DNA of 64,000 nucleotides from Mycobacteriales bacterium (GTDB taxonomy: Bacteria > Actinomycetota > Actinomycetes > Mycobacteriales > SCTD01): NCBI GenBank assembly GCA_038256525.1, contig JBBSKF010000001.1, positions 9,706 to 73,705 of the forward strand, in the 5' to 3' direction. This document shows positions 22,605-35,770 of the stretch, piece by piece (the first letter of the stretch is position 1; each line of letters starts with the position of its first letter). The position numbers and the translations under genes are program-made. Below the pieces are notes generated by a model. The model worked only from the letters and a program-made list of their open reading frames with translations, did no database searches and was not told the origin of the DNA.

Positions 22605-24581
22605 ATGACCGAGCTGACCGACCGACCCGCCGCGGCGCACGCCGACGCCGCGTTCGACGCCGACGACCTGCCGTCGAGTCCGGCCACCACGCCGCACTTC
22701 GCCGAGGTGGTGCAGTCGCGGATGTCGCGCCGGACGGTGCTGCAGGGCGGCATGCTGGCAGCGGCCGGCTTCCTGACCACCTCGCTGGTCGACACCCCCG
22801 CCGCGCAGGCCGCACCCGGGGCGAAGGGCCGGCCCGCCGTGCCCCCGAGCACCGGCCTGCTGGGCTTCACACCGATCCCGCCCGGTTACGGCGACGAGGT
22901 CGTCGTGCCGGAGGGCTACAGCGCGGTGCCGTTCATCCCGTGGGGGACGCCACTGCAGCCGAGCGGTCCGCGCTTCGTACCGGGCACGCCAGACCTGATC
23001 GGCACCGGCAACACCGCCGCCGAGCAGGAGCAGCAGGTCGGCATGCACCACGACGGGATGCACTTCTTCCCCCTCGGCGAGCGCAAGCAGGCGAGCCGGC
23101 ACGGCCTGCTCGTGGTCAACCACGAGTACACCGACGAGTACTACCTGCACACCGGCACGTTCACCGAGTTGACCCCCGAGCAGTACACCCCCGACATGGT
23201 GCGCAAGTCCCAGGCCGCGCACGGCGTCGGCGTCTACGAGGTGCGGGCCAACCGGCACGGCAGCTGGCGGCTGATGCCGTCGAAGCTCAACCGGCGGATC
23301 ACGGCCAACACGCCGATGACGTTCTCGGGCCCCGCCGCCGGCAGCCCGCTGCTGGTCACCGGCGCCCCGGCCGACGGCACCAACCCGGTCGGCACCATGA
23401 ACAACTGCGCGCACGGCTACACGCCGTGGGGCACGTACCTGACCTGCGAGGAGAACTTCAACGGCTACTTCCGGGTCGACGCCGGCGCCTACACCGCCTC
23501 CCAGCAGGCACTGAACTCGAGGTACGGCGTCGGCGGCGACCGCTTCAACTGGGCCACCCAGGACGACCGCTTCGTGGTGACCGCGGCCCGGCCGAACGAG
23601 CCGAACCGGTTCGGCTGGGTCGTCGAGATCGACCCCTTCGCGGCCTCCTCGACCCCCGTGAAGCGCACGGCGCTCGGTCGGATGAAGCACGAGGGCGCTT
23701 ACATCCACGTCGCCGACAACGGCCACGTCGTCGCCTACATGGGCGACGACCAGGTCAACGAGTACGCCTACAAGTTCGTCAGCGCCCGACCGTGGCGGAC
23801 CATGGTGCTCGCCGGCCAGAGCCCGCTCGACGAGGGCACCCTCTACGTCGGCCGGTTCAACGACGACGGAAGCGGCGCCTGGCTCCCGCTGGTGCACGGC
23901 ACCGGGCCGCTGACGACGGCGAACGGCTTCGCCGATCAGGGCGACGTCCTCGTCAGGACCCGGCAGGCCGCCGATGCGCTCGGCGCGACCCGCATGGACC
24001 GCCCGGAGTGGACCGCCGTCGATGAGCGGACCGGCATGGTCTATCTGACGCTGACCAACAACACCTCGAGCAGCAAGGTGGTCAACGCGGCCAACCCACG
24101 CAAGCCCAACCCCTGGGGTCAGATCATCCGTTGGGAGGAGCGGGGTGGGGACCACACCTCCACGTCGTTCCAGTGGGACCTGTTCCTGCTCGCCGGTCCG
24201 GGCGGGGGCGCCGACGGCTCGACTGTCGACACCGAGGACGCGTTCGGCTCACCCGACGGCCTCTGGGTCGACCCGGACAGCCGGGTGTGGATCCAGACCG
24301 ACGGCCGGCAGCCGGCAGCGGCCAACAACCAGATGCTCGCCGCCGCCCCGACCCCGCTGACCTCCCCGGCGCGGCCTGACGTGCGGCGCTTCCTGACCGG
24401 TGTCATCGGCTGCGAGGTCACCGGCGTCATCACCACACCCGACCAGCGCACGATGTTCATCAACCTGCAGCACCCCGGCGAGGACGGCGGAAGCACCTGG
24501 CCGCAGGACGACGGCCTCGCCACGCCGCGATCGGCGACCGTCGTTATCGTCAAGGACGACGGCGGCGTGATCGGCACCTGA
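22605..24581 (+). CDS. phoX: Tat-secreted alkaline phosphatase PhoX (DUF839)
   Basis: SRRTVLQGGMLAAAGF Tat signal, NCAHGYTPWGTYLTCEEN and PEWTAVD. AGGGGAG RBS 7 nt upstream of the start. Confidence 0.8.
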   Translation: MTELTDRPAAAHADAAFDADDLPSSPATTPHFAEVVQSRMSRRTVLQGGMLAAAGFLTTSLVDTPAAQAAPGAKGRPAVPPSTGLLGFTPIPPGYGDEVVVPEGYSAVPFIPWGTPLQPSGPRFVPGTPDLIGTGNTAAEQEQQVGMHHDGMHFFPLGERKQASRHGLLVVNHEYTDEYYLHTGTFTELTPEQYTPDMVRKSQAAHGVGVYEVRANRHGSWRLMPSKLNRRITANTPMTFSGPAAGSPLLVTGAPADGTNPVGTMNNCAHGYTPWGTYLTCEENFNGYFRVDAGAYTASQQALNSRYGVGGDRFNWATQDDRFVVTAARPNEPNRFGWVVEIDPFAASSTPVKRTALGRMKHEGAYIHVADNGHVVAYMGDDQVNEYAYKFVSARPWRTMVLAGQSPLDEGTLYVGRFNDDGSGAWLPLVHGTGPLTTANGFADQGDVLVRTRQAADALGATRMDRPEWTAVDERTGMVYLTLTNNTSSSKVVNAANPRKPNPWGQIIRWEERGGDHTSTSFQWDLFLLAGPGGGADGSTVDTEDAFGSPDGLWVDPDSRVWIQTDGRQPAAANNQMLAAAPTPLTSPARPDVRRFLTGVIGCEVTGVITTPDQRTMFINLQHPGEDGGSTWPQDDGLATPRSATVVIVKDDGGVIGT

Positions 24582-24660
24582 CCGCTGGTACGACGACCGA
24601 CGGCCCGCTGCGCTCCACGCGGCGGGCCGTTGGTCTGTCCCGTCTCACTAGGCTGACCGG

Positions 24661-25818
24661 GTGCGGGTCCTGATCGCCCCCGACGGCTTCGGGGGCACCC
24701 TGAGCCCGGTCGAAGCGGCCGAGGCCATCGCCGCCGGCTGGCGGACCGCGGCGCCGGACGACGACCTCGATCTCGCGCCGCTGTCCGACGGGGGCCCCGG
24801 CTTCGTCGAGGTGCTGGCCGCCGCGCGGCCGGGCGCGATCCGGCGAGCGGTCCGGGTGCAGGACGCCCTGGGCCGCCCGGTCCGGGCCGAGCTCCTGCTG
24901 GACGGCGCCACCGCCTACGTCGAGAGCGCTTCGGCCTGCGGCCTGCACCTGCTGACCGACGGTGAGCGAACCCCGAGAGCCACCACGACGTACGGGGTGG
25001 GGCAGCTGCTCACCGAGGCGCTCGAAGCCGGCGCAGGTCGCATCGTCGTCGGACTCGGCGGCAGCGCGACCAACGACGGCGGCGCCGGGATGCTGGCCGC
25101 GCTCGGGTTGGCCTGCCACGGCGCGGGCGGCGAGCGGCTGGCACCAGGCGGCGCAGCGCTGAGCGGGCTCGCCCGGCTCGCGGGTCGGCCAGATCCGCGG
25201 CTGGCCGACGTGGAGCTGATCGCCGCGACCGACGTCGACAGCCCGCTGCTCGGCCTGCGTGGGGCGTCTGCCGTCTTCGGACCGCAGAAGGGCTCGAGCC
25301 GCGAGGACGTCGCCCTGCTCGACGGCGCACTTCACCGCTTCGCCGATGTCCTCGAGGCGCACCTCGGGGTGTCGGTCCGCGAGCAGCAGGGCGCCGGCGC
25401 GGCCGGCGGCCTCGGCGCCGCGCTGCTCGCCCTGGGTGCCCGCCGCGAGTCGGGCATCTCGCTGGTCCAGCGACTCGTCGGCCTGCCGGCGCGGGTCGCC
25501 CGCGCTGAGCTCGTCGTCACGGGGGAGGGGACGCTCGACGGCTCCAGCCTGTCGGGCAAGGTGGTCTCAGGTGTCGCCGCGCTGGCTGCCGCCGAGGCAG
25601 TCGTCTGCCTGGTGCTTGCGGGCGCCGTACGGGTGGGTGGGCGCGAGCTGGCCGCAGCCGGCATCGAGGCGGCGTACTCGCTGGTCGAGCAGGTGGGGGT
25701 CGAGGCGGCCCTGCTCCGCCCGGCCGAGGAGCTCGCGGCGCTTGCGACCCGGGTCTCGAGGCAGTGGTCTCGGCCCGGACGTGCGACAGTGGAAGGGTCC
25801 GGGACGCCACCGTGTTGA
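24661..25818 (+). CDS. Glycerate kinase
   Basis: MRVLIAPDGFGGTLSPVEAAEAI, LSDGGPGF and GGSATNDGGAGML. Confidence 0.85.
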   Translation: MRVLIAPDGFGGTLSPVEAAEAIAAGWRTAAPDDDLDLAPLSDGGPGFVEVLAAARPGAIRRAVRVQDALGRPVRAELLLDGATAYVESASACGLHLLTDGERTPRATTTYGVGQLLTEALEAGAGRIVVGLGGSATNDGGAGMLAALGLACHGAGGERLAPGGAALSGLARLAGRPDPRLADVELIAATDVDSPLLGLRGASAVFGPQKGSSREDVALLDGALHRFADVLEAHLGVSVREQQGAGAAGGLGAALLALGARRESGISLVQRLVGLPARVARAELVVTGEGTLDGSSLSGKVVSGVAALAAAEAVVCLVLAGAVRVGGRELAAAGIEAAYSLVEQVGVEAALLRPAEELAALATRVSRQWSRPGRATVEGSGTPPC

Positions 25819-25868
25819 CTGGACGACACCCGTACGCGATTCCCCGCTCGCTCTCACCGGAGGCCCCG

Positions 25869-26246
25869 ATGACCGCCCCGCAGACCACTTCACCCGAGAC
25901 CGCCTCCGACACGGCTGTCGGCGTCGTGCTCAGCGACCCCGCCGCCGAGAAGGTCAAGGCGCTGCTCGCGCAGGAGGGCCGTGACGACCTCGCGCTGCGG
26001 GTCGCCGTGCAGCCCGGCGGCTGCTCCGGTCTGCGCTACCAGCTGTTCTTCGACGAGCGCTCACTCGACGGTGACGCGGTGCAGTCCTACGCCGACGGCA
26101 GCGTCCGGGTCGTCGTCGACCGGATGAGCGTGCCCTACCTCGCCGGCGCGACGATCGACTTCGTCGACACCATCGAGAAGCAGGGCTTCACCATCGACAA
26201 CCCCAACGCGGGCGGCTCCTGCGCCTGCGGCGAGTCCTTCCACTAG
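25869..26246 (+). CDS. erpA: HesB/IscA-family iron-sulfur cluster insertion protein
   Basis: GGCSGLRYQLFFD and the C-terminal GGSCACGESF cysteine motif. The ORF was trimmed to ATG 25869. Confidence 0.85.
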   Translation: MTAPQTTSPETASDTAVGVVLSDPAAEKVKALLAQEGRDDLALRVAVQPGGCSGLRYQLFFDERSLDGDAVQSYADGSVRVVVDRMSVPYLAGATIDFVDTIEKQGFTIDNPNAGGSCACGESFH

Positions 26247-26463: not shown

Positions 26464-27171
26464 TTACCGGCGAGTACCCAAGCCGGCTCGGCGCGTCGCG
26501 GCGTGCAGCAGGGCGAGCAACCCGTCAGCGGCCTGGCAGTGTCCGGTGAGCGTGGTGACCGACTCGGCCGCTGCCGGGTCCGCGAGCTCGAAGAGCACAG
26601 GCCGGCTGGGCGCTCGTTCGAGCAGCAGCGCCACCGCCGCCTCGCCCGGAGTCGGGCCGTCCGGGGCGAGCCCGGCGAGCACGGTCGGGTCGAGCGCGTC
26701 GGCCCCGACGGCCAGGGCCGCGTCGCTCCGTCCGGTCAGCAGCAGCCGCGAGGCCTCCGTGAGGGCGTCCAGTCCGGCGTTCGGCCCGCACAGCGTCAGA
26801 TTGGGACCGGTGGGTCCGAGCAGTGCCGCCAGCTGCCCGGCATGCACGCTCAACACCGTGTTGGGGAAGGCCATCGGAAAGACCCGGTCGGGGCCCTGCT
26901 CGGCGGCGACCTGCACGAAGGCGGCCAGCGGGTCGACGCTCGCCCACCGGGTCCCGAGCACGATCGCGCACCGCGCCGCCGCGACCGGTATCCCGGCGGT
27001 GCCGAGCGCGTCGGCGCACGCCACCATGGCGAGCCGCGCGGTGCGCGACAGGGGCCGCAGTCCCCGCATCTGCAGGGCGCCGTGCAGCACGTCGTCGGGC
27101 ACCCGCCCTGAGGCCGGCGCTGCACCGAAGCTGCCACGGCCACCTGCGTACAGCAGGCCGACCCCGGTCAC
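26464..27171 (-). CDS. Truncated beta-ketoacyl synthase N-terminal-like protein (CLF-like, no catalytic Cys or His)
   Basis: About 235 aa that align with only the N-terminal KS half. The position of the KS GGACAAG motif reads CGPNAG, and the C-terminal His-His half is absent. GTGA start/stop overlap with the upstream KS at 27168-27171. Confidence 0.65.
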   Translation of the reverse strand: MTGVGLLYAGGRGSFGAAPASGRVPDDVLHGALQMRGLRPLSRTARLAMVACADALGTAGIPVAAARCAIVLGTRWASVDPLAAFVQVAAEQGPDRVFPMAFPNTVLSVHAGQLAALLGPTGPNLTLCGPNAGLDALTEASRLLLTGRSDAALAVGADALDPTVLAGLAPDGPTPGEAAVALLLERAPSRPVLFELADPAAAESVTTLTGHCQAADGLLALLHAATRRAGLGTRR

Positions 27172-28403
27172 GAACACGGTGACCAGCCGGGGGCGGCCAG
27201 GACCGTGACGACGTCGATGCCGCCGAAGGCGTACGCCTGGTTGGCGATGATCCGCAGCGGTGCCTCGCGCGGTTCGTCCGGCACGATGTCCCAGTCCAGG
27301 GCCGGGTCCTGCTCGCCGGCGTGCCAGGTCGGCGGGATCACCTGCTGCTGCAGCGCGAGCACCGACAGCACTGCTTCGACGGCGCTGGCCGCACCGAGGC
27401 CGTGGCCGGTGAGCGACTTCACCGATGACGCTGGCGGACGAGGCCCGTCACCGAAAACCATATGCAGCGCGGCGATCTCAGCGGCGTCGTTCGCCGGAGT
27501 GCCCGTGCCGTGCGCGCAGACCCAGTCGACGTCGCATCGGTCGACCCGAGCATCCTCGATGGCGGAGCGCAGAGCTGCGGCCGCGCCCGCGCCCGAGGGC
27601 AGCGGCGCGGTCGGATGGTGGGCGTCGCAGGCGTGGCCCGCGCCGGCCAGCACGGCGAGCTCCTCGGCGCCCCGGCCGGCGGCACTCGAGCGCCGCTCGA
27701 GCACCAGGAAGGCCGCACCCTCGCCGAGCACCAGCCCCTGCCGGTCGCGGCCGAACGGCCGGCAGCCGTCGCGGGCGAGCGCGCCGAGCTTGGCGAAGCC
27801 GGTGAACGCGGTCCGGCTGAACGCATCGACCCCGCCGGCGAGCACCCGTGTGTGTGCGCCGGACCGAAGGACATCCAAGCCCCAGGCGAGGGCCGAGTTT
27901 CCGGCTGCGCAGGCACCGCCCAGGGCCAGCACCCGACCGTCCGCGCCGACGTGTCTCGCGGTGTCTGCCGCAAGGACGTCAGGTGTGCCGGCCAGCAGCT
28001 CCGCCGCGCGGTGCGGCAGCGGTGGCCAGGCCCGGGCATCCTCCTCCGGCCAGGTCTCGATCCAGGTCGGTTCGCCCATCGTCGTGCCCACCGCCACCGC
28101 CAGACCGGCACCGTCCGAACCGGCGCCGGCGAGCGCATCCTCGGCCGCGAGCCGGGACAGCGCGGCCGCCCGGCCGACCATCGGCCGTCCGGCGCCGTCG
28201 CGGTAGGACGACGGCAGCAGCGCGGCGGGCACCTCGGCGCCCAGGCACGTCGCGTAGTCGCTCGTGGAGAACGACCGCACCGGCCGCACCCCGCTGCGGC
28301 CGGCCAGCACCGCATCCCACAGCGACGGTGCACCCCGGCCCAAGGCCGTCACCACGCCGATCCCGGTCACGACGACGGGATCGCGCCCGTCGGACCCGCT
28401 CAC
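27168..28403 (-). CDS. Beta-ketoacyl-ACP synthase (FabF/KAS II-like)
   Basis: PVVVTGIGVVTALG, active-site LGGACAAGNSAL, CDAHHPTAP, VCAHGTGTPANDAAE and KSLTGHGLGAASAVE. GTG 28403 overlaps the ACP stop (GTGA). The 125 codons of the track ORF upstream of this start were rejected. Confidence 0.85.
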   Translation of the reverse strand: MSGSDGRDPVVVTGIGVVTALGRGAPSLWDAVLAGRSGVRPVRSFSTSDYATCLGAEVPAALLPSSYRDGAGRPMVGRAAALSRLAAEDALAGAGSDGAGLAVAVGTTMGEPTWIETWPEEDARAWPPLPHRAAELLAGTPDVLAADTARHVGADGRVLALGGACAAGNSALAWGLDVLRSGAHTRVLAGGVDAFSRTAFTGFAKLGALARDGCRPFGRDRQGLVLGEGAAFLVLERRSSAAGRGAEELAVLAGAGHACDAHHPTAPLPSGAGAAAALRSAIEDARVDRCDVDWVCAHGTGTPANDAAEIAALHMVFGDGPRPPASSVKSLTGHGLGAASAVEAVLSVLALQQQVIPPTWHAGEQDPALDWDIVPDEPREAPLRIIANQAYAFGGIDVVTVLAAPGWSPCS

Positions 28404-28642
28404 CTGCGGGCGCCCAGCCGCTCCTCGGTCAACGCGGCGAGCGCGCGCAGCGTCGTCGCGCGGATCAGCGAGGCCTCGTCGTAACGGACGCCGAACCGTC
28501 CTTCGGCGTGCACGGCGATCTCCATGGCCATGAGCGAGTCGACATCGACCTGCTCGAACGGCGTGTCCAGGTCGACGTCGGCGGGGTCGAGCTCGGCGAT
28601 CTCGGCGACGAGCTCCCGCAGGGCGTCCTGCAGCGGGGTCAC
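28400..28642 (-). CDS. Acyl carrier protein
   Basis: 80 aa with VDVDSLMAMEI (DSL phosphopantetheine-attachment serine). GTG 28642 overlaps the upstream stop (GTGA). Confidence 0.8.
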   Translation of the reverse strand: MTPLQDALRELVAEIAELDPADVDLDTPFEQVDVDSLMAMEIAVHAEGRFGVRYDEASLIRATTLRALAALTEERLGARR

Positions 28643-29574
28643 GAGGCGACCAGCTGCTCGTCCGGGGCCGGGGCATAGAGCGCGTGCGCCCGCGCCGCCG
28701 CGCCGGGCCCGCCCGACAGGTGGGCGAGCGGGTCGCCGCAGATGCGGTACTGCGAGGCGAGCACCTCGACCTGGCCATCGTCGACGAGTGCGCGGCGCAG
28801 CAGGTCGCCCAGCGAAGTGGGCGCCGCCTGCAGCGCTGCCGCCAGTCGCACCACCAGGCGCACGCTGTCCAGGTGCAGGACCGGCCGGACCGCGCCGAGC
28901 GACGCGGCGGCGGCTCCGGCGACCACGACCGACTCGCTGAAACTCAGTCCGACCCGCCAGCGGCTCGCGGTCCAGCAGGTCACCGACAGCAACGCCCCGA
29001 GCGGGGCGTCCAGGGCGGCGGCAGACAGGTGCTCCGCCCGCAGCCCGCGGTAGGCCGCCCAGCCACCCGGTCGGCCGTGGCCGAGATAGACGGCGAGGCC
29101 GAGCCCACCGCCCAGGCCGTGCAGCAGGTCCTCGCGGGTCACTCGCTCGGCGGTCCAGCGGACGACGTCGACATCCCCGAGGTGGCGCTCGAGCCGATCG
29201 GCCAGGTGCAGGTAGCGGGCCTCGCGCTGGCCGAGCACCGCGACGGGTGCGGGCGACCTGCGGCCGAGGACTTCCGCCGCGGTGGCAACGGCCAGCGGCA
29301 GCTGCGAGGTCACCGGCAACCAGCCGACGGGGACCGGCGCGCCGTCCGCGTCCGGAACGAACAGGCCGGGCAGGACCGTCTGCGGCGAGCGCTGCCGCGC
29401 ACCGACCAGGAGCACGCCGGCCGCTCCGGCCGGCACCCGGTCCTGCCACCGGGCCGGCGGGCCTTCGGCGGTCAGAACGCGGACCTCCCGGGTCGCGGCG
29501 TGCGCCGCCACCAGCGGCGCGAGCGCGGGCAGGGCCTGTGCCGGGGCCAGCAGCACCCAGGCGCCGTCGTTCAC
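28639..29574 (-). CDS. Peptidase C25 (gingipain)-like clan CD protein without a signal peptide
   Basis: VYLGHGRPGGW (His166), then LLSVTCWTAS (Cys200) 34 residues later, then FSES and YRICGDPLAHL. The order and spacing resemble the gingipain GHG...W / AC / GDP pattern. GTG 29574 overlaps the upstream stop (GTGA). Confidence 0.55.
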   Translation of the reverse strand: MNDGAWVLLAPAQALPALAPLVAAHAATREVRVLTAEGPPARWQDRVPAGAAGVLLVGARQRSPQTVLPGLFVPDADGAPVPVGWLPVTSQLPLAVATAAEVLGRRSPAPVAVLGQREARYLHLADRLERHLGDVDVVRWTAERVTREDLLHGLGGGLGLAVYLGHGRPGGWAAYRGLRAEHLSAAALDAPLGALLSVTCWTASRWRVGLSFSESVVVAGAAAASLGAVRPVLHLDSVRLVVRLAAALQAAPTSLGDLLRRALVDDGQVEVLASQYRICGDPLAHLSGGPGAAARAHALYAPAPDEQLVAS

Positions 29575-32351
29575 GCCGCGCGCACCTCGGCGATGTAGCT
29601 GTCGAAAGCAGCGGTGCTGGTCCCGGCCTTGGTCGCCGTGTAGAAGTCGCGCACGATCTGCGCCTGCTGCTCGGGATTGAAGGCCGCCAGACCCTCTGCC
29701 TCGTGATCGGCGAGCCCGGTTGCCCCGCCGTAGCTGTAGCCGTCGGTCTGCTGCCCGATCAGGGCGTGGGCCATGTAGACCGGGCCGACCTGCTCGCCCT
29801 GCCAGACGTGCATCAGCTCGTGCATGAGCCAGCCCTCCTGAGTCGGGTCCGTGTCGGAGTAGCTGGCCGGGAAGTGGATGATCCGCATGGTGACCACCCC
29901 GGTCGGGTTGCCGGTGTTGTTGGCGGCGGCCCAGGACACGAACGATCCCTCGAAGATCTGCACGTCGTCGTAGGGCAGCGTGTCCTGGAACACCGTCTCG
30001 GCCCGCGACCGCTCTCCCGCCGTGAGCCCGCGGAACACCCCGAAGATCTCGAGAACGATCGCGACCGCGCCGAACACCGCGCCGCCGAAGACCTCGAGCA
30101 GCCCGTCGAGCACCTCCTGCAGCGCGCTGCCGGCGTCTTTGAGGGCCTGCGTGATGCGCCGCTTGTCCTCGTCCCTGAGCGTGAACGCCTCCGCCAGGAT
30201 GTCCTTCACCTGCGTGCCGAGCTCGCGCAGCGCCTGCATCGTCAGCGCCAGGGCGTTCTGCGGCTGGGTGACCACGGCGACCAGGAGCTGGCCGAGCGTG
30301 ACGCCGGTGAGCAGGATCGCCTCCACGACCGCGACCACGGCCTCGAGCGCCTTGCCGGCGAACCACGCGACGAGGTCGGCGAGGGCGGCGCCGGCCCGTA
30401 GCAGGCCGCGCACGACCGCGGCGACTCCGGGCAGGAAGTCCTTGGCCACCCACGTGAGCAGGTAGCTGATCGAGTTCTTCAGCCTCGCCCACACCTCGCC
30501 GAGCAGATCGAGCGCGGCCTGCCCGGCCGCCTTCGCCCAGTCGATGACGTCGCGCAGCCGGCTGCCGATGTCCTCGGCGACCCGGACGACCGCCTCGAGG
30601 AAGTCCCGTCCCCGGGCAAGGGCCCAGCTCAGCGCCTCGTCGAGCGCCCGGCGGACGAAGCGGATCGCGAGCACCGCCTCACGCAGCAGCGCCTCGAAGG
30701 CGTTTGCCGCCTGGTTCGCGACCCAGTCGAGGATCTCCCCGACAGCCCGACCGGCCTGCAGGATGCCGGTGACCAGCCGGCGGAGCAGGAAGTAGGTGCC
30801 CGAAGCCGCCTGCTCCAGCAGGTCGGCCACGGCGACGCCCGCCGCGATCGCGGCCTGGACGAACCGGTAGACCGCCCGGTAGCTGAAGACCACGGCGGCC
30901 TTCACGAGCTCCCCGATCGCTGCCCCGGCCGCGACCAGAGCATCGATGGCGGCGTTGAGCGCGGACTGGGCGAGCCGAGCGACCTCCTGGACGATGCGCA
31001 GGACGGCGTAGCCGAGGTCCACTGCCGCCTCGACGGCCCGCCGCACCGCGTCCACGCTGAACCGGACCAGCTCGGTGATCAGGTCGCCCAGCGTCCGCCC
31101 CAGCTCCAGCACGGCGCGGGCCAGCTGCCGGGCGAGGTTTGCCGCCTCCTGGGCGATCAGGCGCATCACCTCGACGAAACCGCTCGCAACGCTGATCAGC
31201 TCCTTCACGACCTCGCGCAGCAGGTCTGCCGCGGTCTGCGCGACCTTGCGCACCACGTCAACGATCTGGTGCCCGAGCTCGACCAGGGCGCGGACCATCC
31301 GGCGCAGCAGGCTCAGCGAGGTCTCGACCGCCGCGCGGAGCACCGTCGCGAGGTTGTGACCCAGATCGATCAGCGCCTGGCCGATGCGGCCGAGCACCCC
31401 GCCGACCGCGTCGGCCGCCTGACGCACGATGTTGGCGAGAGTCTTGCCGATCGCGATCAGCGCCTGGACGACGTTCTTCACGATGTTCGCGGCCTGGGTG
31501 ACCAGGAAGGACAGCAGCTCCCCGAGCGTCTGGCCGAGGCTGTCGATCGCCCGGAGCAGCGTCCGCAGCGCTTCGCCGACGAAGGACACCGCGTCCTGCA
31601 GGATCGAGAACATGGCCCGGCCGGCGTCGCGGACGGCCTGCACCATCTTGCGGACGAAGTCGTAGCCGTGGGCCAGTGCGGCGCCCAGGAGCTGGCCGAT
31701 GCTCTGCCCGGCCGCGAGCAGCCCCTTGGCCAGGCTGGTGAGCTTGTCGACCGTCCAGCTGACCACCGAGGCGATGGCCGCGCCAAGGTCCTGGATGGCG
31801 TCGCTCACCGCGTCGACGAGGGCGTCGATGGCCTCCTTCACCTCATCGACGATGTCGTTGATGACCTCGACGATGGCGTTGTCCTGCTCGTCGTCGGCGG
31901 GAGTGACCGGCTGGGTCTGGAGCTGTGCGCCCAAGCCGGCGATGTGCTCCCAGACCGACTCGAGGGCCGCCTTGTCCTTGCGCCCGGCCGGGGTCAGCAC
32001 GAAGTCCTTCATCAGCGCCCGGGCATGCGCCGCCGGGAGCTGGCTGATGGCGTGGACGACCCACGGCTCCTGACCGGCGTCGCGGTAGCCCTTCAGCAGC
32101 ATCCGGCGTTCCTGCTCGCCCCGCGTCGCGACCGACTGGAACACCTGCCGGTGCTGGTCGATGCTCGGCAAGCCGCTCGCGTAGGCGGCCGCCAGCTTGC
32201 GAGCGGTGGCGGGTGACTGGGCGAACGCCTCCTGGAAGGCCGGCCCCACCTCCGACGGTGTGGGCTCGGCGAGGGCGACCCGCTCAGCGAGCTCGGCCGC
32301 CCCGCTGCGCGAGATGTTGCCCAGCATTGCCACGAAGCGTTCTGCTGCCAT
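29571..32351 (-). CDS. 926-aa helical-repeat protein with one predicted TM segment and a C-terminal DUF4157-like HExxH metallopeptidase domain
   Basis: Residues about 190-760 carry at least 17 copies of an x-[LA]-G-x-x-hydrophobic-x-x-hydrophobic-hydrophobic motif (for example LVELGHQIVDVV, VLELGRTLGDLI). The hydrophobic segment is VFGGAVFGAVAIVLEIFGVF. The C-terminus reads AETVFQDTLPYDDVQIF...WLMHELMHVWQGEQ, with HELMH encoded at 29808-29822. Confidence 0.7.
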   Translation of the reverse strand: MAAERFVAMLGNISRSGAAELAERVALAEPTPSEVGPAFQEAFAQSPATARKLAAAYASGLPSIDQHRQVFQSVATRGEQERRMLLKGYRDAGQEPWVVHAISQLPAAHARALMKDFVLTPAGRKDKAALESVWEHIAGLGAQLQTQPVTPADDEQDNAIVEVINDIVDEVKEAIDALVDAVSDAIQDLGAAIASVVSWTVDKLTSLAKGLLAAGQSIGQLLGAALAHGYDFVRKMVQAVRDAGRAMFSILQDAVSFVGEALRTLLRAIDSLGQTLGELLSFLVTQAANIVKNVVQALIAIGKTLANIVRQAADAVGGVLGRIGQALIDLGHNLATVLRAAVETSLSLLRRMVRALVELGHQIVDVVRKVAQTAADLLREVVKELISVASGFVEVMRLIAQEAANLARQLARAVLELGRTLGDLITELVRFSVDAVRRAVEAAVDLGYAVLRIVQEVARLAQSALNAAIDALVAAGAAIGELVKAAVVFSYRAVYRFVQAAIAAGVAVADLLEQAASGTYFLLRRLVTGILQAGRAVGEILDWVANQAANAFEALLREAVLAIRFVRRALDEALSWALARGRDFLEAVVRVAEDIGSRLRDVIDWAKAAGQAALDLLGEVWARLKNSISYLLTWVAKDFLPGVAAVVRGLLRAGAALADLVAWFAGKALEAVVAVVEAILLTGVTLGQLLVAVVTQPQNALALTMQALRELGTQVKDILAEAFTLRDEDKRRITQALKDAGSALQEVLDGLLEVFGGAVFGAVAIVLEIFGVFRGLTAGERSRAETVFQDTLPYDDVQIFEGSFVSWAAANNTGNPTGVVTMRIIHFPASYSDTDPTQEGWLMHELMHVWQGEQVGPVYMAHALIGQQTDGYSYGGATGLADHEAEGLAAFNPEQQAQIVRDFYTATKAGTSTAAFDSYIAEVRAA

Positions 32352-32480
32352 GACTCCCCCCAGAGATCATCACGAATGCTGCGCGACAACAGATCACAGT
32401 CGCTCGCGTCAGGTCAAGCAGCAGCCCTGCACAGACCGACCTGGCCCGGTGCCGTCGACCGCCGTCAGTACTGTCCCCGC

Positions 32481-33446
32481 ATGCGCATCGCCGTCGCCGG
32501 TTCCATCGCCACCGACCACCTGTTCACCTTCGAGGGGCGCTTCGCCGATTCCCTGCTGGTGGCCCAGCTGAGCAACGTGTCCCTGTCGTTTCTTGCCAGC
32601 GACCTGCAGATCCGGCGCGGTGGCACGGGCGCCAACATCGCCTTCGGCATGGGGATGCTCGGTGCCCGGCCGTTGCTGGTCGGGGCGGTGGGCAGGGACG
32701 GGGCCGACTACCTGAGCTGGCTGCGGGAGCACGGTGTGGACACCGACCACGTACGCATCAGCCCGGACAAGGCCTCCGCCCGCTTCACCTGCACGACCGA
32801 CCAGGACCACGCCCAGCTCGCCACCTTCTACCCGGGGGCGATGTCGGAGGCGGCGGAGATCGACATCGGCGCCCTGGGCGAGCTCGACCTGGTCGTCGTC
32901 GCCCCGGACGATCCCGGCGCCATGCAGCGCCACTCCGCCAGCTGCCGTGAGCGGGGGGTGCCGTTCGCCGCTGACCCGTCCCAGCAGCTGTCGTTCCTGA
33001 CCGGAGACGCCATCCGGGCGCTGGTCGAGGGGGCGACCTACCTGTTCAGCAACGCCTACGAGGCCGCGCTCATCCACGACAAGACCGGCTGGAGCGCCGA
33101 CGACGTGCTCGGCCTGGTCGGCACCCGCATCACGACGCACGGGCCGGACGGGATCCGGATCACGCGCAGGGGCGAGGACGAGATCCTGGTCGCCGTGGCG
33201 CCGGCTCGCCGGTTGACCGACCCGACCGGCGTCGGCGATGCCTTCCGGGCCGGGTTCCTCACCGCCACCGGGTGGGGGCTGCCGCTCGAGCGCGCCGCGC
33301 AGGTGGGCGCCCTCGTGGCGACCCATGTGGTGGAGACGGTCGGCCCGCAGGACTACACCTTCACCCCGGCCGAGTTCCTCGTCCGCTTCGTCGAGGCGTA
33401 CGGCGGGGACGCCGCCGCCGAGGTGGAGCCCTTGTTCGCGGCCTGA
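32481..33446 (+). CDS. PfkB-family carbohydrate/adenosine kinase
   Basis: MRIAVAGSIATDHLFTF, GGTGANIAFGMGMLG and the C-terminal DPTGVGDAFRAGF motif. The ORF was trimmed to ATG 32481. Confidence 0.8.
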   Translation: MRIAVAGSIATDHLFTFEGRFADSLLVAQLSNVSLSFLASDLQIRRGGTGANIAFGMGMLGARPLLVGAVGRDGADYLSWLREHGVDTDHVRISPDKASARFTCTTDQDHAQLATFYPGAMSEAAEIDIGALGELDLVVVAPDDPGAMQRHSASCRERGVPFAADPSQQLSFLTGDAIRALVEGATYLFSNAYEAALIHDKTGWSADDVLGLVGTRITTHGPDGIRITRRGEDEILVAVAPARRLTDPTGVGDAFRAGFLTATGWGLPLERAAQVGALVATHVVETVGPQDYTFTPAEFLVRFVEAYGGDAAAEVEPLFAA

Positions 33447-33450
33447 GGAG

Positions 33451-33681
33451 TCAGACGAGGCGTCGTACGCGGTAGACCGAGCCGATCTCGCGCTCGGTCG
33501 CACCGACGTACTCCTGCCGGCGCATCCGGCACCAGGCGGGGATGTCGAGCCGGGCCGCCGGGTCGTCGCTGAGCACGTGGACCTGTTCGCCGACGGCCAC
33601 CTCCAGCAGCGCCCGCGCCAACTCGATGACCGGGATCGGGCACGGCCGTCCGAGGCAGTCGATCGTCAGGACCGCGCTCAC
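33451..33681 (-). CDS. TusA-like sulfurtransferase
   Basis: 76 aa with the CLGRPCPIPV (CPxP) active-site motif. Confidence 0.75.
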   Translation of the reverse strand: MSAVLTIDCLGRPCPIPVIELARALLEVAVGEQVHVLSDDPAARLDIPAWCRMRRQEYVGATEREIGSVYRVRRLV

Positions 33682-33694
33682 AGCGCCTCCATAG

Positions 33695-34834
33695 TCACAG
33701 GGCCTCCACGCCGGCCTCGCGGCGGAGCCGGGCGACCACCGGCGGGAGCACGGCCAGGAAGCGGTCGATGTCGGCCTCGGTCGTGCCGTGGTGCAGCGAG
33801 AGCCGCACGTTGCCGTGGGTCAGCACTCCCATCGCCACCAGCACGTGGCTCGGCTCGAGCGTCGAGGCGGTGCAACTCGAGCCGCTGCTCACGGCGAAAC
33901 CCTCCCGGTCGAGGGCGGTGAGCAGGGCCTCGCCGTCCACGTACAGGCAGGAGAAGGTGAGCAGGTGGGGGAGTCGGTCGACCGGATCGCCGACCACCTC
34001 GACGTCCGGCACAGCCGCAACGATGCCGAGACGCAGCCGGTCGACGAGCGGGCGCAGCCGCGCATCCTCGCCGGCCGCCTCGGCCGCGGCTGCCTGCAAT
34101 CCGACCGCCGCGGACAGGATCTGCGGCAGGCCGGGAGCCCCGGGGACACGCCCGGCCTCGCGCTCGTCGGTCGGCAGCGGCGAGCGCCAGCGGGTGCCGG
34201 TACGGATGGCAAGGACACCGACCCCGGGCGGGCCACCCCACTTGTGGGCGCTCGCGGTCAGCAGCGCCCAGCCGGTCGGGATCGGCGCCCGGCCGGCGCT
34301 CTGCGCGGCATCGACGAACAGCGGCACCTCACCGCAGCGCTCGGCGACGGCGTCCACCGGCTGGACGGTGCCGACCTCGTGGCTCGCGCTGATCAGGCAG
34401 GCCACGGCGGTGCCGGGACGCAGCGCCGCCCCGAACCCGGCCACGTCCACCCGGCCCAGCCGGTCGACGGGCGCGGCGCTGGCCTCGCCCGCGGCATGCG
34501 CCACGGCCGACAGCACGCAGGAGTGCTCGATCGCGGAGTGCACGACGTGCCGCCCGGTGCCTGCGCGTCCGGCGAGCGTGCCCAGCACCGCGAGGTGGGC
34601 CGCCTGCGTCCCGGAGCCGGCGAAGCTGACCTCGTCCGGGCGGGCGCCGAGCACGTCGGCCACCGCCTCGCGCGCACCCTCCAGCAGCAGCCGGGCGCGG
34701 CGGGCGGCACCGTACAGCCGGGTGGGATCGGCCCAGCCGTCGTCGAGCGCGGCCAGCAGCGCAGCGCGGGCCGCCGGGGCGAGCGGCACCGCCGCCGCCG
34801 CGTCGAGGTAGCCACCGTCGGAAGGGGCGCTCAT
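33695..34834 (-). CDS. Cysteine desulfurase family protein (class V aminotransferase)
   Basis: GYLDAAAAVPL, SAHKWGGPPGVG (PLP lysine) and SSGSSCTAS (catalytic Cys loop). Confidence 0.85.
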   Translation of the reverse strand: MSAPSDGGYLDAAAAVPLAPAARAALLAALDDGWADPTRLYGAARRARLLLEGAREAVADVLGARPDEVSFAGSGTQAAHLAVLGTLAGRAGTGRHVVHSAIEHSCVLSAVAHAAGEASAAPVDRLGRVDVAGFGAALRPGTAVACLISASHEVGTVQPVDAVAERCGEVPLFVDAAQSAGRAPIPTGWALLTASAHKWGGPPGVGVLAIRTGTRWRSPLPTDEREAGRVPGAPGLPQILSAAVGLQAAAAEAAGEDARLRPLVDRLRLGIVAAVPDVEVVGDPVDRLPHLLTFSCLYVDGEALLTALDREGFAVSSGSSCTASTLEPSHVLVAMGVLTHGNVRLSLHHGTTEADIDRFLAVLPPVVARLRREAGVEAL

Positions 34835-34918
34835 GAGGTGACGGTATGCGCGGCGAGCCCCGGCAGGTGCGGTGAAAGCCGCTGGGCTAGGCTCGCCGCC
34901 GTGGGATCAGGGGCCAGG

Positions 34919-35770
34919 ATGCGTGCTGTGTCAGGGTCGATCCCGCGGACGATCCGGCTCGCCACAGTGCTGCTGCCGGTCGGCCTGCTCGCCTCCGGGT
35001 GCAGCATGCGGGAGGCCTACGAGAGCACGTTTGCGCTCGGCTTCCCGGACCCCGTCACCGAGCAGGCGGAGAGCGTCTACGAGCTGTGGTTGGGCTCGGT
35101 CGCCGCCGCCGCGGTGGTCGGGGTGTTCGTCACCTTCCTGATCCTCTACGCGATGGTGCGCTTCCGGAAGACGGGCGACACGCTCCCGCGGCAGGTCCGG
35201 TACAACCTGCCGATCGAGGTGCTCTACACCGCGGTCCCCTTCGTGATCATCGCGGTGCTCTTCTACTACACGACGGTGAGCCAGAACTTCGTCCTCGCCA
35301 AGTCGAAGGACGGGGCGGACGTCAACATCGGTGTCGTCGGCTTCCAGTGGAACTGGACCTTCCGGCACGACGACTCAGGGGTCCAGGTCACCGGTGAGAC
35401 TCGAAAGCCCGCGCAGCTGGTCCTGCCGACCGACACCCGGATCCGCTTCACCGAGACCTCGCCCGACGTCATCCACTCCTTCTTCGTGCCCGCCTTCCTG
35501 TTCAAGCAGGACGTCGTCCCCGGTCGGGCCAACACCTTCGAGATCACGATCACGAAGGAGGGGACCTACATCGGGCGCTGCGCCGAGCTGTGCGGGGAGA
35601 AGCACTCGGCGATGAACTTCTCGGTCCGGGCGGTCTCCCCGCAGGCCTACGCGGACTACATCACCGAGCTCCAGTCCGACCCGGCCAACTCGATCGGGAC
35701 CACCGCCGGTGACGGCTCGGTCCGCAGCGCCGAGCAGGCCAAGGAACTGATCGACGGGAGACCCTCATGA
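34919..35770 (+). CDS. ctaC: Cytochrome c oxidase subunit II
   Basis: Lipobox LLASGC, two TM helices and CuA motif HSFFVPAF...[12 protein letters not shown]. The ORF was trimmed to ATG 34919. Confidence 0.9.

Follow-up and report, generated by a model that had tools for sequence, protein, structure and literature searches.

Background

What might a gingipain-like protein, encoded without a signal peptide, do in an actinobacterial operon that also encodes an acyl carrier protein (ACP) and a ketosynthase (KS)? The question is raised by a stretch of 64,000 nucleotides from a Mycobacteriales bacterium (assembly GCA_038256525.1, contig JBBSKF010000001.1, positions 9,706 to 73,705 of the forward strand), which is referred to below as the window and whose numbering is used throughout. 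A first-pass annotation, made from the letters alone, had singled out an open reading frame (ORF) with a product of 311 residues as a possible member of peptidase family C25. This family is known for its secreted virulence proteases and for the sortase of the type IX secretion system (T9SS) of Bacteroidota. In the present analysis the ORF product is identified as gingipain-like, and its constant genomic partner is found to be a 926-residue protein encoded directly upstream, here called BIG, rather than the ACP. From this pairing we tentatively propose that the enzyme serves the processing of BIG, and we weigh this proposal against other explanations of the same cassette.

Identity and fold of the C25-like protein

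The coordinates given in the first-pass annotation, 28639-29574, are right, however, the gene lies on the minus strand and runs from 29574 to 28639, starting with GTG. Read on the plus strand, the same interval is free of stops over 312 codons and holds none of the motifs on which the earlier suggestion had been based, and a separate plus-strand ORF is listed at 28684..29598. All of these motifs are present in the minus-strand translation of 311 residues, namely VYLGHGRPGGW (with His166), LLSVTCWTAS (with Cys200), FSES and YRICGDP. The start codon is well placed, as homologues begin at the same position ("M..GAWVLVAP"). The features of the gene are as follows.

28639..29574, minus strand: C25-like (gingipain-fold) cysteine enzyme, identified by translation, Pfam model PF01364, AlphaFold2 and Foldseek; only the N-terminal and the caspase-like C-terminal subdomains are present
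29077..29079, minus strand: codon of His166 (YLGHG), candidate general base; aligned with RgpB His211, two residues past strand 160-164, invariant
28975..28977, minus strand: codon of Cys200 (SVTC), candidate nucleophile; aligned with RgpB Cys244 and with 'TATC' of PorU, two residues past strand 192-198, invariant
28729..28737, minus strand: G280-D281-P282, the C25 family signature at the end of the last core strand; invariant, aligned with 'GDP' of PorU

Four independent tests, that is, the family model, the profile, the fold, and the position and conservation of the catalytic dyad, identify the ORF product as gingipain-like. The Pfam model Peptidase_C25 (PF01364) matches it with 32.6 bits against a gathering cut-off of 23 (E-value 6.5e-8), over residues 145-283 and profile positions 215-371, and precomputed matches to the same model are recorded on nearly all of 79 homologues. 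When a profile of 28 homologues was compared with the sequences of the Protein Data Bank (PDB), RgpB was detected with an E-value of 3.4e-5 and PorU with 3e-3. In the resulting alignment YLGHG corresponds to YTGHG (RgpB His211), SVTC to DVAC (Cys244), SFSE to CFAE, and GDP to the GDP of PorU.

An AlphaFold2 model computed from the alignment of the 28 homologues reached a mean predicted local distance difference test score (pLDDT) of 95.1. On searching the PDB with this model using Foldseek, RgpB was the best match (1cvr, E-value 2.8e-12, query-normalised TM-score 0.68), followed by Kgp (6i9a); these alignments extend over 353-372 columns including gaps, for a query of 311 residues. The gingipains were followed by separase, the CHAT/Craspase proteases and procaspase-3, an order which, on the predicted structure, reads as a clan CD series with the gingipains nearest. 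The C25-like assignment of the first-pass annotation is thus borne out, with significant matches to clan CD in both sequence and fold. A match to PDB entry 4j6f, labelled 'alcohol dehydrogenase' (E-value 2.4e-5), was set aside, being absent from the family-profile and fold searches.

An exhaustive profile search returned 140 cluster representatives at E-values below 1e-30, nearly all of them 300-350 residues long. Some relatives (in Nocardioides caldifontis and in a Nocardioidaceae metagenome-assembled genome, MAG) are already named "C25 family cysteine peptidase" by NCBI, and the family assignment is therefore not new.

Catalytic dyad, architecture and predicted specificity

The candidate dyad follows strands 160-164 and 192-198 of the model, the positions that define the dyad of clan CD (PMC4357240). 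Together with G280-D281-P282, His166 and Cys200 are invariant in the 28 homologues and conserved at a level of at least 95 % in 75 sequences from seven phyla. The first-pass annotation had put the catalytic residues of RgpB 33 residues apart; the alignment confirms this figure for His211 and Cys244, and the corresponding distance here is 34.

Residues 3-75 of the protein align with residues 9-92 of mature RgpB, and the first strand of the fold is formed already by residues 6-10 (pLDDT 88-98). There is therefore no room for a signal peptide or a prodomain, in agreement with the earlier description of the protein as signal-less. The 311 residues are fully occupied by the two catalytic subdomains, and an Ig-like domain and a T9SS C-terminal domain are absent as well. 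Judged by its sequence, the enzyme represents a minimal, cytoplasmic branch of the C25 family, reduced to the catalytic core. With the gingipains RgpB and Kgp of Porphyromonas gingivalis (MEROPS family C25, clan CD) it shares the two-subdomain fold, the His-Gly...Cys dyad at the same strand ends, and the FxE and GDP motifs. It differs from them in sequence (identity of about 15 %), in lacking the signal peptide, the 229-residue prodomain, the Ig-like domain and the T9SS domain, in its cytoplasmic operon context, and in the S1 pocket, where Asp163 is not conserved and invariant Gln and Arg residues are found in the pocket-forming loops instead.

The residue equivalent to the arginine-binding Asp163 of RgpB is Glu118 here, and the position varies within the family (His in 47 % of one group, Glu in another). 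In clan CD the S1 pocket is formed by a set of loops (PMC4357240); at the corresponding sequence positions the present protein carries invariant Gln116, Arg168 and Arg205 and a near-invariant His234, and no invariant acid. Because the Asp163 position is variable and the S1 loops lack an invariant acid, specificity for Arg or Lys is unlikely, and an acidic or otherwise anionic P1 residue or ligand appears plausible. The enzyme looks catalytically competent and is predicted to be active.

BIG as the constant partner of the C25-like gene

The C25-like gene is one of five minus-strand genes chained by overlaps of stop and start codons, in the order BIG, C25-like enzyme, ACP, KS and a KS-like partner. 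A GTGA overlap joins BIG to the C25-like gene at 29571-29574, a second joins the C25-like gene (stop TGA, 28639-28641) to the ACP gene (start GTG, 28640-28642), as expected from the translational coupling to the ACP that had been noted earlier, and a third joins ACP to KS at 28400-28403. The genes of KS and KS-like partner overlap by 10 nucleotides.

The neighbourhood was examined in 79 loci, taking one genome per species; phyla were assigned by record titles, in which the labels of MAGs may be imperfect. The loci span Actinomycetota, Chloroflexota, Acidobacteriota, Verrucomicrobiota, Bacteroidota, Fibrobacterota and Pseudomonadota. A homologue in an actinobacterium, which the first-pass annotation had regarded as unexpected, is thus no anomaly for this protein of about 300 residues. 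Upstream flank is available for 75 of the loci, and in every one of them the C25-like gene is directly preceded by a BIG homologue. A KS gene is found near the C25-like gene in 60 of 70 assessable copies and is missing from the other 10, and five more copies are truncated. Copies without KS and ACP, with neither gene within several kb, occur in Opitutaceae, in a Fibrobacterota MAG and in a Terriglobia MAG. The invariant residues of the C25-like enzyme are unchanged whether or not KS and ACP are adjacent. The constant partner is BIG, not the ACP.

The association of KS and ACP with the BIG-C25 pair nevertheless survives rearrangement. In Aequorivita the order of the five genes is identical to that of the window. 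In Holophagaceae (Geothrix, L047:8951-10458, and also L021, L034 and L079) KS and ACP are encoded on the opposite strand, convergently, right after BIG-C25; the KS-like partner was not detected in these four loci. All-against-all clustering of the ORFs in the neighbourhoods gave no gene beyond the cassette that is common across phyla, and the surroundings of the cassette differ between genomes.

A reciprocal search was carried out in metagenomes, seeded on the HExxHVWQ motif of BIG. Full-length BIG relatives with enough downstream flank were followed by a C25-like gene, save for two loci (L102 and L101) that are taken up below, whereas about 60 short stand-alone proteins resembling VgrG2b had no C25 neighbour. 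Because the full-length proteins are paired and the stand-alone domains are not, the C25-like enzyme tracks the architecture of BIG and not the metallopeptidase domain alone, nor the ACP. Two divergent pairs (L100:4800-8218 and L103:4752-7679), at 26-28 % identity, keep the motifs YWGHG, SC(N/S)T and LLG(T/N)P. They consist of shorter repeat/metallopeptidase proteins (847 and 679 residues, respectively) followed by a C25-like protein of about 293 residues, for which the Pfam C25 threshold is reached by the L100 copy only (30.4 bits); no KS or ACP was found near either pair.

Domain organization of BIG

BIG is organized as follows.

29571..32351, minus strand: BIG, ORF of 926 residues, its stop overlapping the C25 start (GTGA)
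31902..32351, minus strand: N-terminal domain, residues 1-150; family-wide conservation, model pLDDT about 60-78 here and nowhere else in BIG
31881..31883, minus strand: codon of Asp157, invariant in 'D-x-A-V-V-E' just past a variable Pro-rich linker; candidate processing site
30132..31874, minus strand: central region, residues ~160-740, with about 20 tandem helical repeats of 29 residues, by autocorrelation
29574..30038, minus strand: C-terminal zinc-metallopeptidase domain of the VgrG2b/Tpe1 (DUF4157/eCIS_core) type, last ~155 residues; profile match to 6h56_A
29808..29822, minus strand: HELMH (His844, Glu845, His848), zinc-binding and catalytic motif; invariant, aligned with HEMTH of VgrG2b
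29670-29672, minus strand: codon of Glu894, aligned with the third zinc ligand; invariant, NIEQQ aligning with FNPEQQ

The N-terminal domain has no relatives in PDB or Pfam. In the repeat region, autocorrelation peaks at 29, 58, 87 and 116 residues were obtained for homologues from five phyla (including those of L003, L028, L031 and L047). About 52 % of the repeat residues are Ala, Leu, Val or Ile, each unit has a conserved Gly ('ALxxxG'), and the repeats are predicted by AlphaFold, at low confidence, to be all-helical. To our knowledge, no described family of 29-residue helical repeats matches these units. A transmembrane helix was considered for the stretch just before the metallopeptidase domain, where hydrophobicity (median 1.86) is not clearly higher than in the rest of the repeats (1.77). 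A word-indexed search for homologues of BIG, with the single sequence or with a profile, returned only 4-5 proteins owing to the repeats rich in Ala, Leu and Val, and BIG relatives were therefore gathered from the loci.

The C-terminal domain could be placed by comparing a profile of 27 such domains with 6h56_A, the effector domain of VgrG2b from Pseudomonas aeruginosa (E-value 5.4e-14 over 138 positions). The Pfam model PF13699 (eCIS_core, formerly DUF4157) matches 22 of the 27 BIG relatives at E-values of 1 or lower, the best being 2.3e-9; for BIG of the window it gives 20.5 bits on the domain and 18 bits on the full-length protein against a cut-off of 22. His844, Glu845, His848 and Glu894 align with H935, E936, H939 and E983 of VgrG2b, which comprise the zinc ligands and the catalytic Glu (PMC6899460). 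The VgrG2b domain has been shown to be a gluzincin whose toxicity is exerted in the periplasm, and an action on lipoproteins has been suggested without proof (PMC6899460).

BIG thus resembles the C-terminal domain of VgrG2b and Tpe1 in the match to 6H56, in the HExxHxWQ motif and in the NxEQQ helix that carries the third zinc ligand. It differs from them in lacking a fusion to VgrG or PAAR and in having about 770 residues of unrelated N-terminal domain and repeats ahead of the metallopeptidase. The following gene encodes the C25-like enzyme, where theirs encodes a small periplasmic immunity protein, and no delivery genes of a type VI secretion system (T6SS) or an extracellular contractile injection system (eCIS) are common to the 79 neighbourhoods.

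At its extreme C-terminus, BIG ends in VRAA or VQAA in 25 of 72 sequences and most of the others end in Ala. Arg774 was considered as a cleavage site and rejected, since the motif in which it lies, 'R-x-L-T/S-x-x-E', belongs to the VgrG2b domain itself.

In several unrelated genomes, genes for cell-wall-directed proteins were seen within a few kb of the cassette, which could be due to chance: Amidase_2 with SH3 repeats (L003:3815-6901), an M23 peptidase (L028:12508-14667), an LGFP-repeat protein (L031:3147-4904) and Amidase_2 (L001:17214-18416). They are worth recording as metallopeptidases of the VgrG2b type act on the envelope.

Proposed processing of BIG

Taken together, we propose that the C25-like enzyme is a processing peptidase or transpeptidase dedicated to BIG and that the KS/ACP module feeds the same pathway, a reading to which we assign a rough probability of 0.45. 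Cys200 would act as the nucleophile and His166 as the general base of a cytoplasmic clan CD enzyme, and an acyl-enzyme would be formed between Cys200 and a peptide bond of BIG, leading to site-specific maturation. The BIG module might then be released or activated by hydrolysis, or the cleaved end might be passed to another nucleophile. ACP, KS and KS-like partner would build an acyl or ketide group for the same pathway, for example for the lipidation of BIG; such a link between the product of the module and BIG is suggested by the gene context.

BIG is the most likely substrate in view of the universal pairing, because the invariant residues of the enzyme are the same whether KS and ACP are adjacent or absent. 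Candidate cleavage sites, as far as the sequences indicate, may be the junction at the invariant Asp157, just past the linker that separates the N-terminal domain from the repeats, or the conserved C-terminal tail of BIG. The former would fit a basic S1 pocket and thus an acidic P1 residue; the C-terminal codons of BIG are also constrained by the overlap with the ribosome-binding site and start of the next gene.

The dedication of a clan CD enzyme to one cognate protein would find parallels in GPI8 and in the caspase-like proteases that act on bacterial gasdermins. The likeness is one of working principle, as there is no sequence relationship beyond the clan and the compartments differ. For GPI8, as for PorU, the outcome is known to be the attachment to a lipid-bearing anchor.

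Several points weigh against this proposal. The cleavage of BIG, or a covalent product of it, is put forward from gene context, and adjacency and translational coupling would fit a stoichiometric complex without proteolysis equally well. The coupling to the ACP, together with the lack of a thioesterase or acyltransferase in the cassette, is as compatible with the acyl transfer discussed below. The argument about the S1 loops is based on sequence position and not on coordinates, and the AlphaFold model of BIG, computed from five sequences, has a pLDDT of only 42.5 and yields no substrate pose. Among the loci of the reciprocal search there is one clear exception to the pairing, L102:4863-7904, where the gene after that of a 1013-residue BIG-like protein, which has a long and basic C-terminal extension, encodes an ATPase of the Mrp/ParA type and not a C25-like protein; in L101:16-2259 the small ORFs in the roughly 1.9 kb downstream included no C25-like gene that could be recognized.

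The carrier-protein module and possible acyl transfer

The remaining genes of the cassette encode the following proteins.

28400..28642, minus strand: ACP, 80 residues, GTG start overlapping the C25 stop; PF00550, 58.1 bits
28535-28537, minus strand: codon of ACP Ser36 (DSL motif), from the translation coordinates
27168..28403, minus strand: FabF-type KS, 411 residues; PF00109 and PF02801, with both His motifs
27909-27911, minus strand: codon of KS Cys165, part of the Cys/His/His triad
26464..27177, minus strand: truncated KS-like partner, resembling a chain-length factor (CLF), 237 residues; PF00109, 44.3 bits over profile positions 82-213, N-terminal thiolase half only

By Pfam and NCBIfam matches, the parts of a type II KS/CLF/ACP system are all present, that is, a KS with its Cys/His/His triad (conserved in 60 homologues), a KS-like partner, which among relatives is about 200-270 residues long and poorly conserved, and an ACP with the serine of the DSL motif. 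The best PDB relatives of the KS are 9s5h_B, a heteromeric KS (E-value 2.7e-77), and 6kxd_A, deposited as 'Ketosynthase' (2.9e-71), which we take to be Iga11 of the Iga11-Iga12 pair from the highly reducing type II polyketide synthase (PKS) for ishigamide. The KS-like partner is closest to 9s5h_C of the same heteromeric entry (9e-13), and the ACP matches 9s5i_E. No paper was found in the literature for entry 9S5H; the biological system behind 9s5h and 9s5i might inform on the product of the module.

The three proteins therefore resemble the heteromeric KS-CLF and ACP of highly reducing systems akin to type II PKS or fatty acid synthase (6KXD; unpublished 9S5H/9S5I), however, the partner here is half a thiolase fold. 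Moreover, reductase or ketoreductase, dehydratase, cyclase, thioesterase and acyltransferase genes are absent from the cassette of the window, and none of them is common to the 79 neighbourhoods. A metagenomic protein (P0044) that looked like a single-chain fusion of C25 and ACP was rejected as a probable frameshift or assembly error, as unrelated residues replace the C-terminus of the C25 part before the ACP.

This inventory bears on the strongest alternative, in which the enzyme is an acyltransferase or thioesterase dependent on acyl-ACP, and which we regard as possible though less probable than the processing of BIG. The first-pass annotation had already raised the idea of a transpeptidase or acyltransferase in place of a hydrolase. 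Cys200 would take a chain from the ACP and release it, or transfer it to an amine or hydroxyl group, for example of BIG, so that the enzyme would supply the missing off-loading step of a mini-synthase made up of KS, KS-like partner and ACP. The overlap of the C25 stop with the ACP start speaks for it, as does a cassette with KS, partner and ACP yet without thioesterase, acyltransferase, ketoreductase or dehydratase, and the persistence of KS and ACP beside BIG-C25 even when inverted. The invariant Arg168, Arg205 and Arg277 could bind the acidic ACP or the phosphate of phosphopantetheine. Lysine fatty-acyltransferases built on a cysteine-protease fold are also known, such as MARTX RID and Shigella IcsB. 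However, the 10 of 70 assessable copies without KS and ACP keep every invariant residue, and these genes are likewise missing from the divergent pairs L100 and L103; such copies could draw on a housekeeping acyl-ACP. We know of no clan CD enzyme that uses an acyl-ACP donor.

The five genes might form a protein-modification pathway in which the ribosomally made BIG is coupled to carrier-protein chemistry by the gingipain-fold enzyme, though we consider this scheme doubtful. By one route, an acyl or ketide chain made by KS and ACP would be loaded onto BIG; by a second and more radical one, an acyl-enzyme derived from BIG would be passed to the thiol of the ACP and then extended by the ketosynthase.

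Possible transamidation, defence or non-catalytic roles

In a further reading the enzyme works as a transamidase like PorU or GPI8, cutting off a terminal segment of BIG and joining the new carboxyl group to an amine-bearing lipid or envelope component, whereby BIG would be anchored. PorU, the sortase-like transpeptidase of the T9SS, belongs to the same C25 family and aligns with the present enzyme through the His, Cys and GDP motifs (the profile match at 3e-3 mentioned above), and it is an example of a C25 peptidase whose acyl-enzyme is resolved by transfer instead of hydrolysis. Clan CD also includes the GPI transamidase and ligases of the legumain type, and genes for lipid building are co-encoded in the cassette. 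The prevalence of VRAA, VQAA or a final Ala at the end of BIG would agree with such a role, however, this conservation may be due in part to constraints from the ribosome-binding site and start overlap of the next gene. The NCBIfam model of PorU (NF033707) gives only 13.8 bits against a cut-off of 420. PorU is an outer-membrane-associated protein of 1,150 residues, whereas the cassette lacks T9SS genes and the C25-like family occurs also in monoderm Actinomycetota. PorU and GPI8 act outside the cytoplasm, whereas none of the five proteins carries an export signal, and no amine-forming enzyme is encoded in the cassette. We hold transamidation to be improbable.

Slightly less credit still is given to a conflict or abortive-infection module, in which BIG would be a latent toxin of membrane or envelope, activated on a trigger by the caspase-like enzyme. 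The model for it is found in the proteases that activate bacterial gasdermins and in the CHAT proteases of CRISPR and CBASS systems. Separase and the CHAT defence proteases are the next folds after the gingipains, the C-terminal domain of BIG belongs to the antibacterial toxin family of VgrG2b and Tpe1, and the neighbourhoods of the cassette vary between genomes. On the other side, the only PADLOC matches were to the tails of ZorA, which were rejected as defence evidence on account of repeat bias, and no relatives were present in the viral contigs searched. There is no sensor domain and no immunity-like small ORF, no compositional anomaly, tRNA or integrase was seen near the cassette, and the KS/ACP module would be left unexplained.

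That the C25-like protein is a non-catalytic chaperone, inhibitor or immunity factor for the BIG metallopeptidase, with the protease fold merely retained, is highly improbable: although an immunity gene lies directly downstream of the metallopeptidase in VgrG2b/Tpe1 loci (PMC6899460), the known Tpi immunity proteins are small, periplasmic and without similarity to the C25-like enzyme, and selection on catalysis is indicated because in all seven phyla, and even in pairs below 25 % identity, His166, Cys200 and the GHG and TC motifs around them do not vary.

Genomic surroundings of the cassette

The flanks of the cassette in the window (22605-26246 and 32376-35770) carry housekeeping genes, namely those for PhoX, glycerate kinase, an Fe-S assembly protein, a PfkB kinase, TusA and a class V aminotransferase/cysteine desulfurase; another flanking gene reads as cytochrome oxidase subunit II. 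The GC content is 70-76 % throughout cassette and flanks. Among named organisms, Nocardioides has the closest relatives of the cassette proteins, at about 59-60 % identity.

As listed, the divergent PfkB ORF starts 24 bp from the start of BIG (region 32352-32480). Translation probably begins about 105 bp inside this ORF, at 'MRIAVAGS...', which would leave a divergent intergenic region of about 130 bp as the expected site of the operon promoter. A scan of 32352-32480 for the sigma-70 consensus found no promoter, and the promoter and terminator scans as a whole gave nothing informative.

Implications for the C25 family

Searches of the literature for C25, gingipain, clan CD or DUF4157 in combination with ACP or ketosynthase found no work on this C25 subfamily, its gene context or the cassette. 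What is new here is the conserved cassette of five genes and BIG as the constant partner of the enzyme; no description of either was found. The C25 family thereby gains a minimal cytoplasmic branch with altered predicted specificity, found in seven or more phyla and tied to one giant partner protein. The usual presence of KS and ACP suggests a link of proteolytic processing to lipid or ketide chemistry, for which there is no described precedent.

Should the five genes indeed form one modification pathway, either of the routes outlined above would lead to a covalently lipidated, membrane-active zinc metallopeptidase, and the enzyme would be the first of clan CD to work with an ACP, in a new route of protein lipidation in both monoderm and diderm bacteria. 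The hosts include named strains (Nocardioides caldifontis, N. halotolerans, Aequorivita nionensis, Lacinutrix and Terrimonas), which makes the hypothesis directly testable. Even if the pair should turn out to be merely a pro-enzyme and its maturation protease, a role would be given to two widespread genes that are at present 'hypothetical'.

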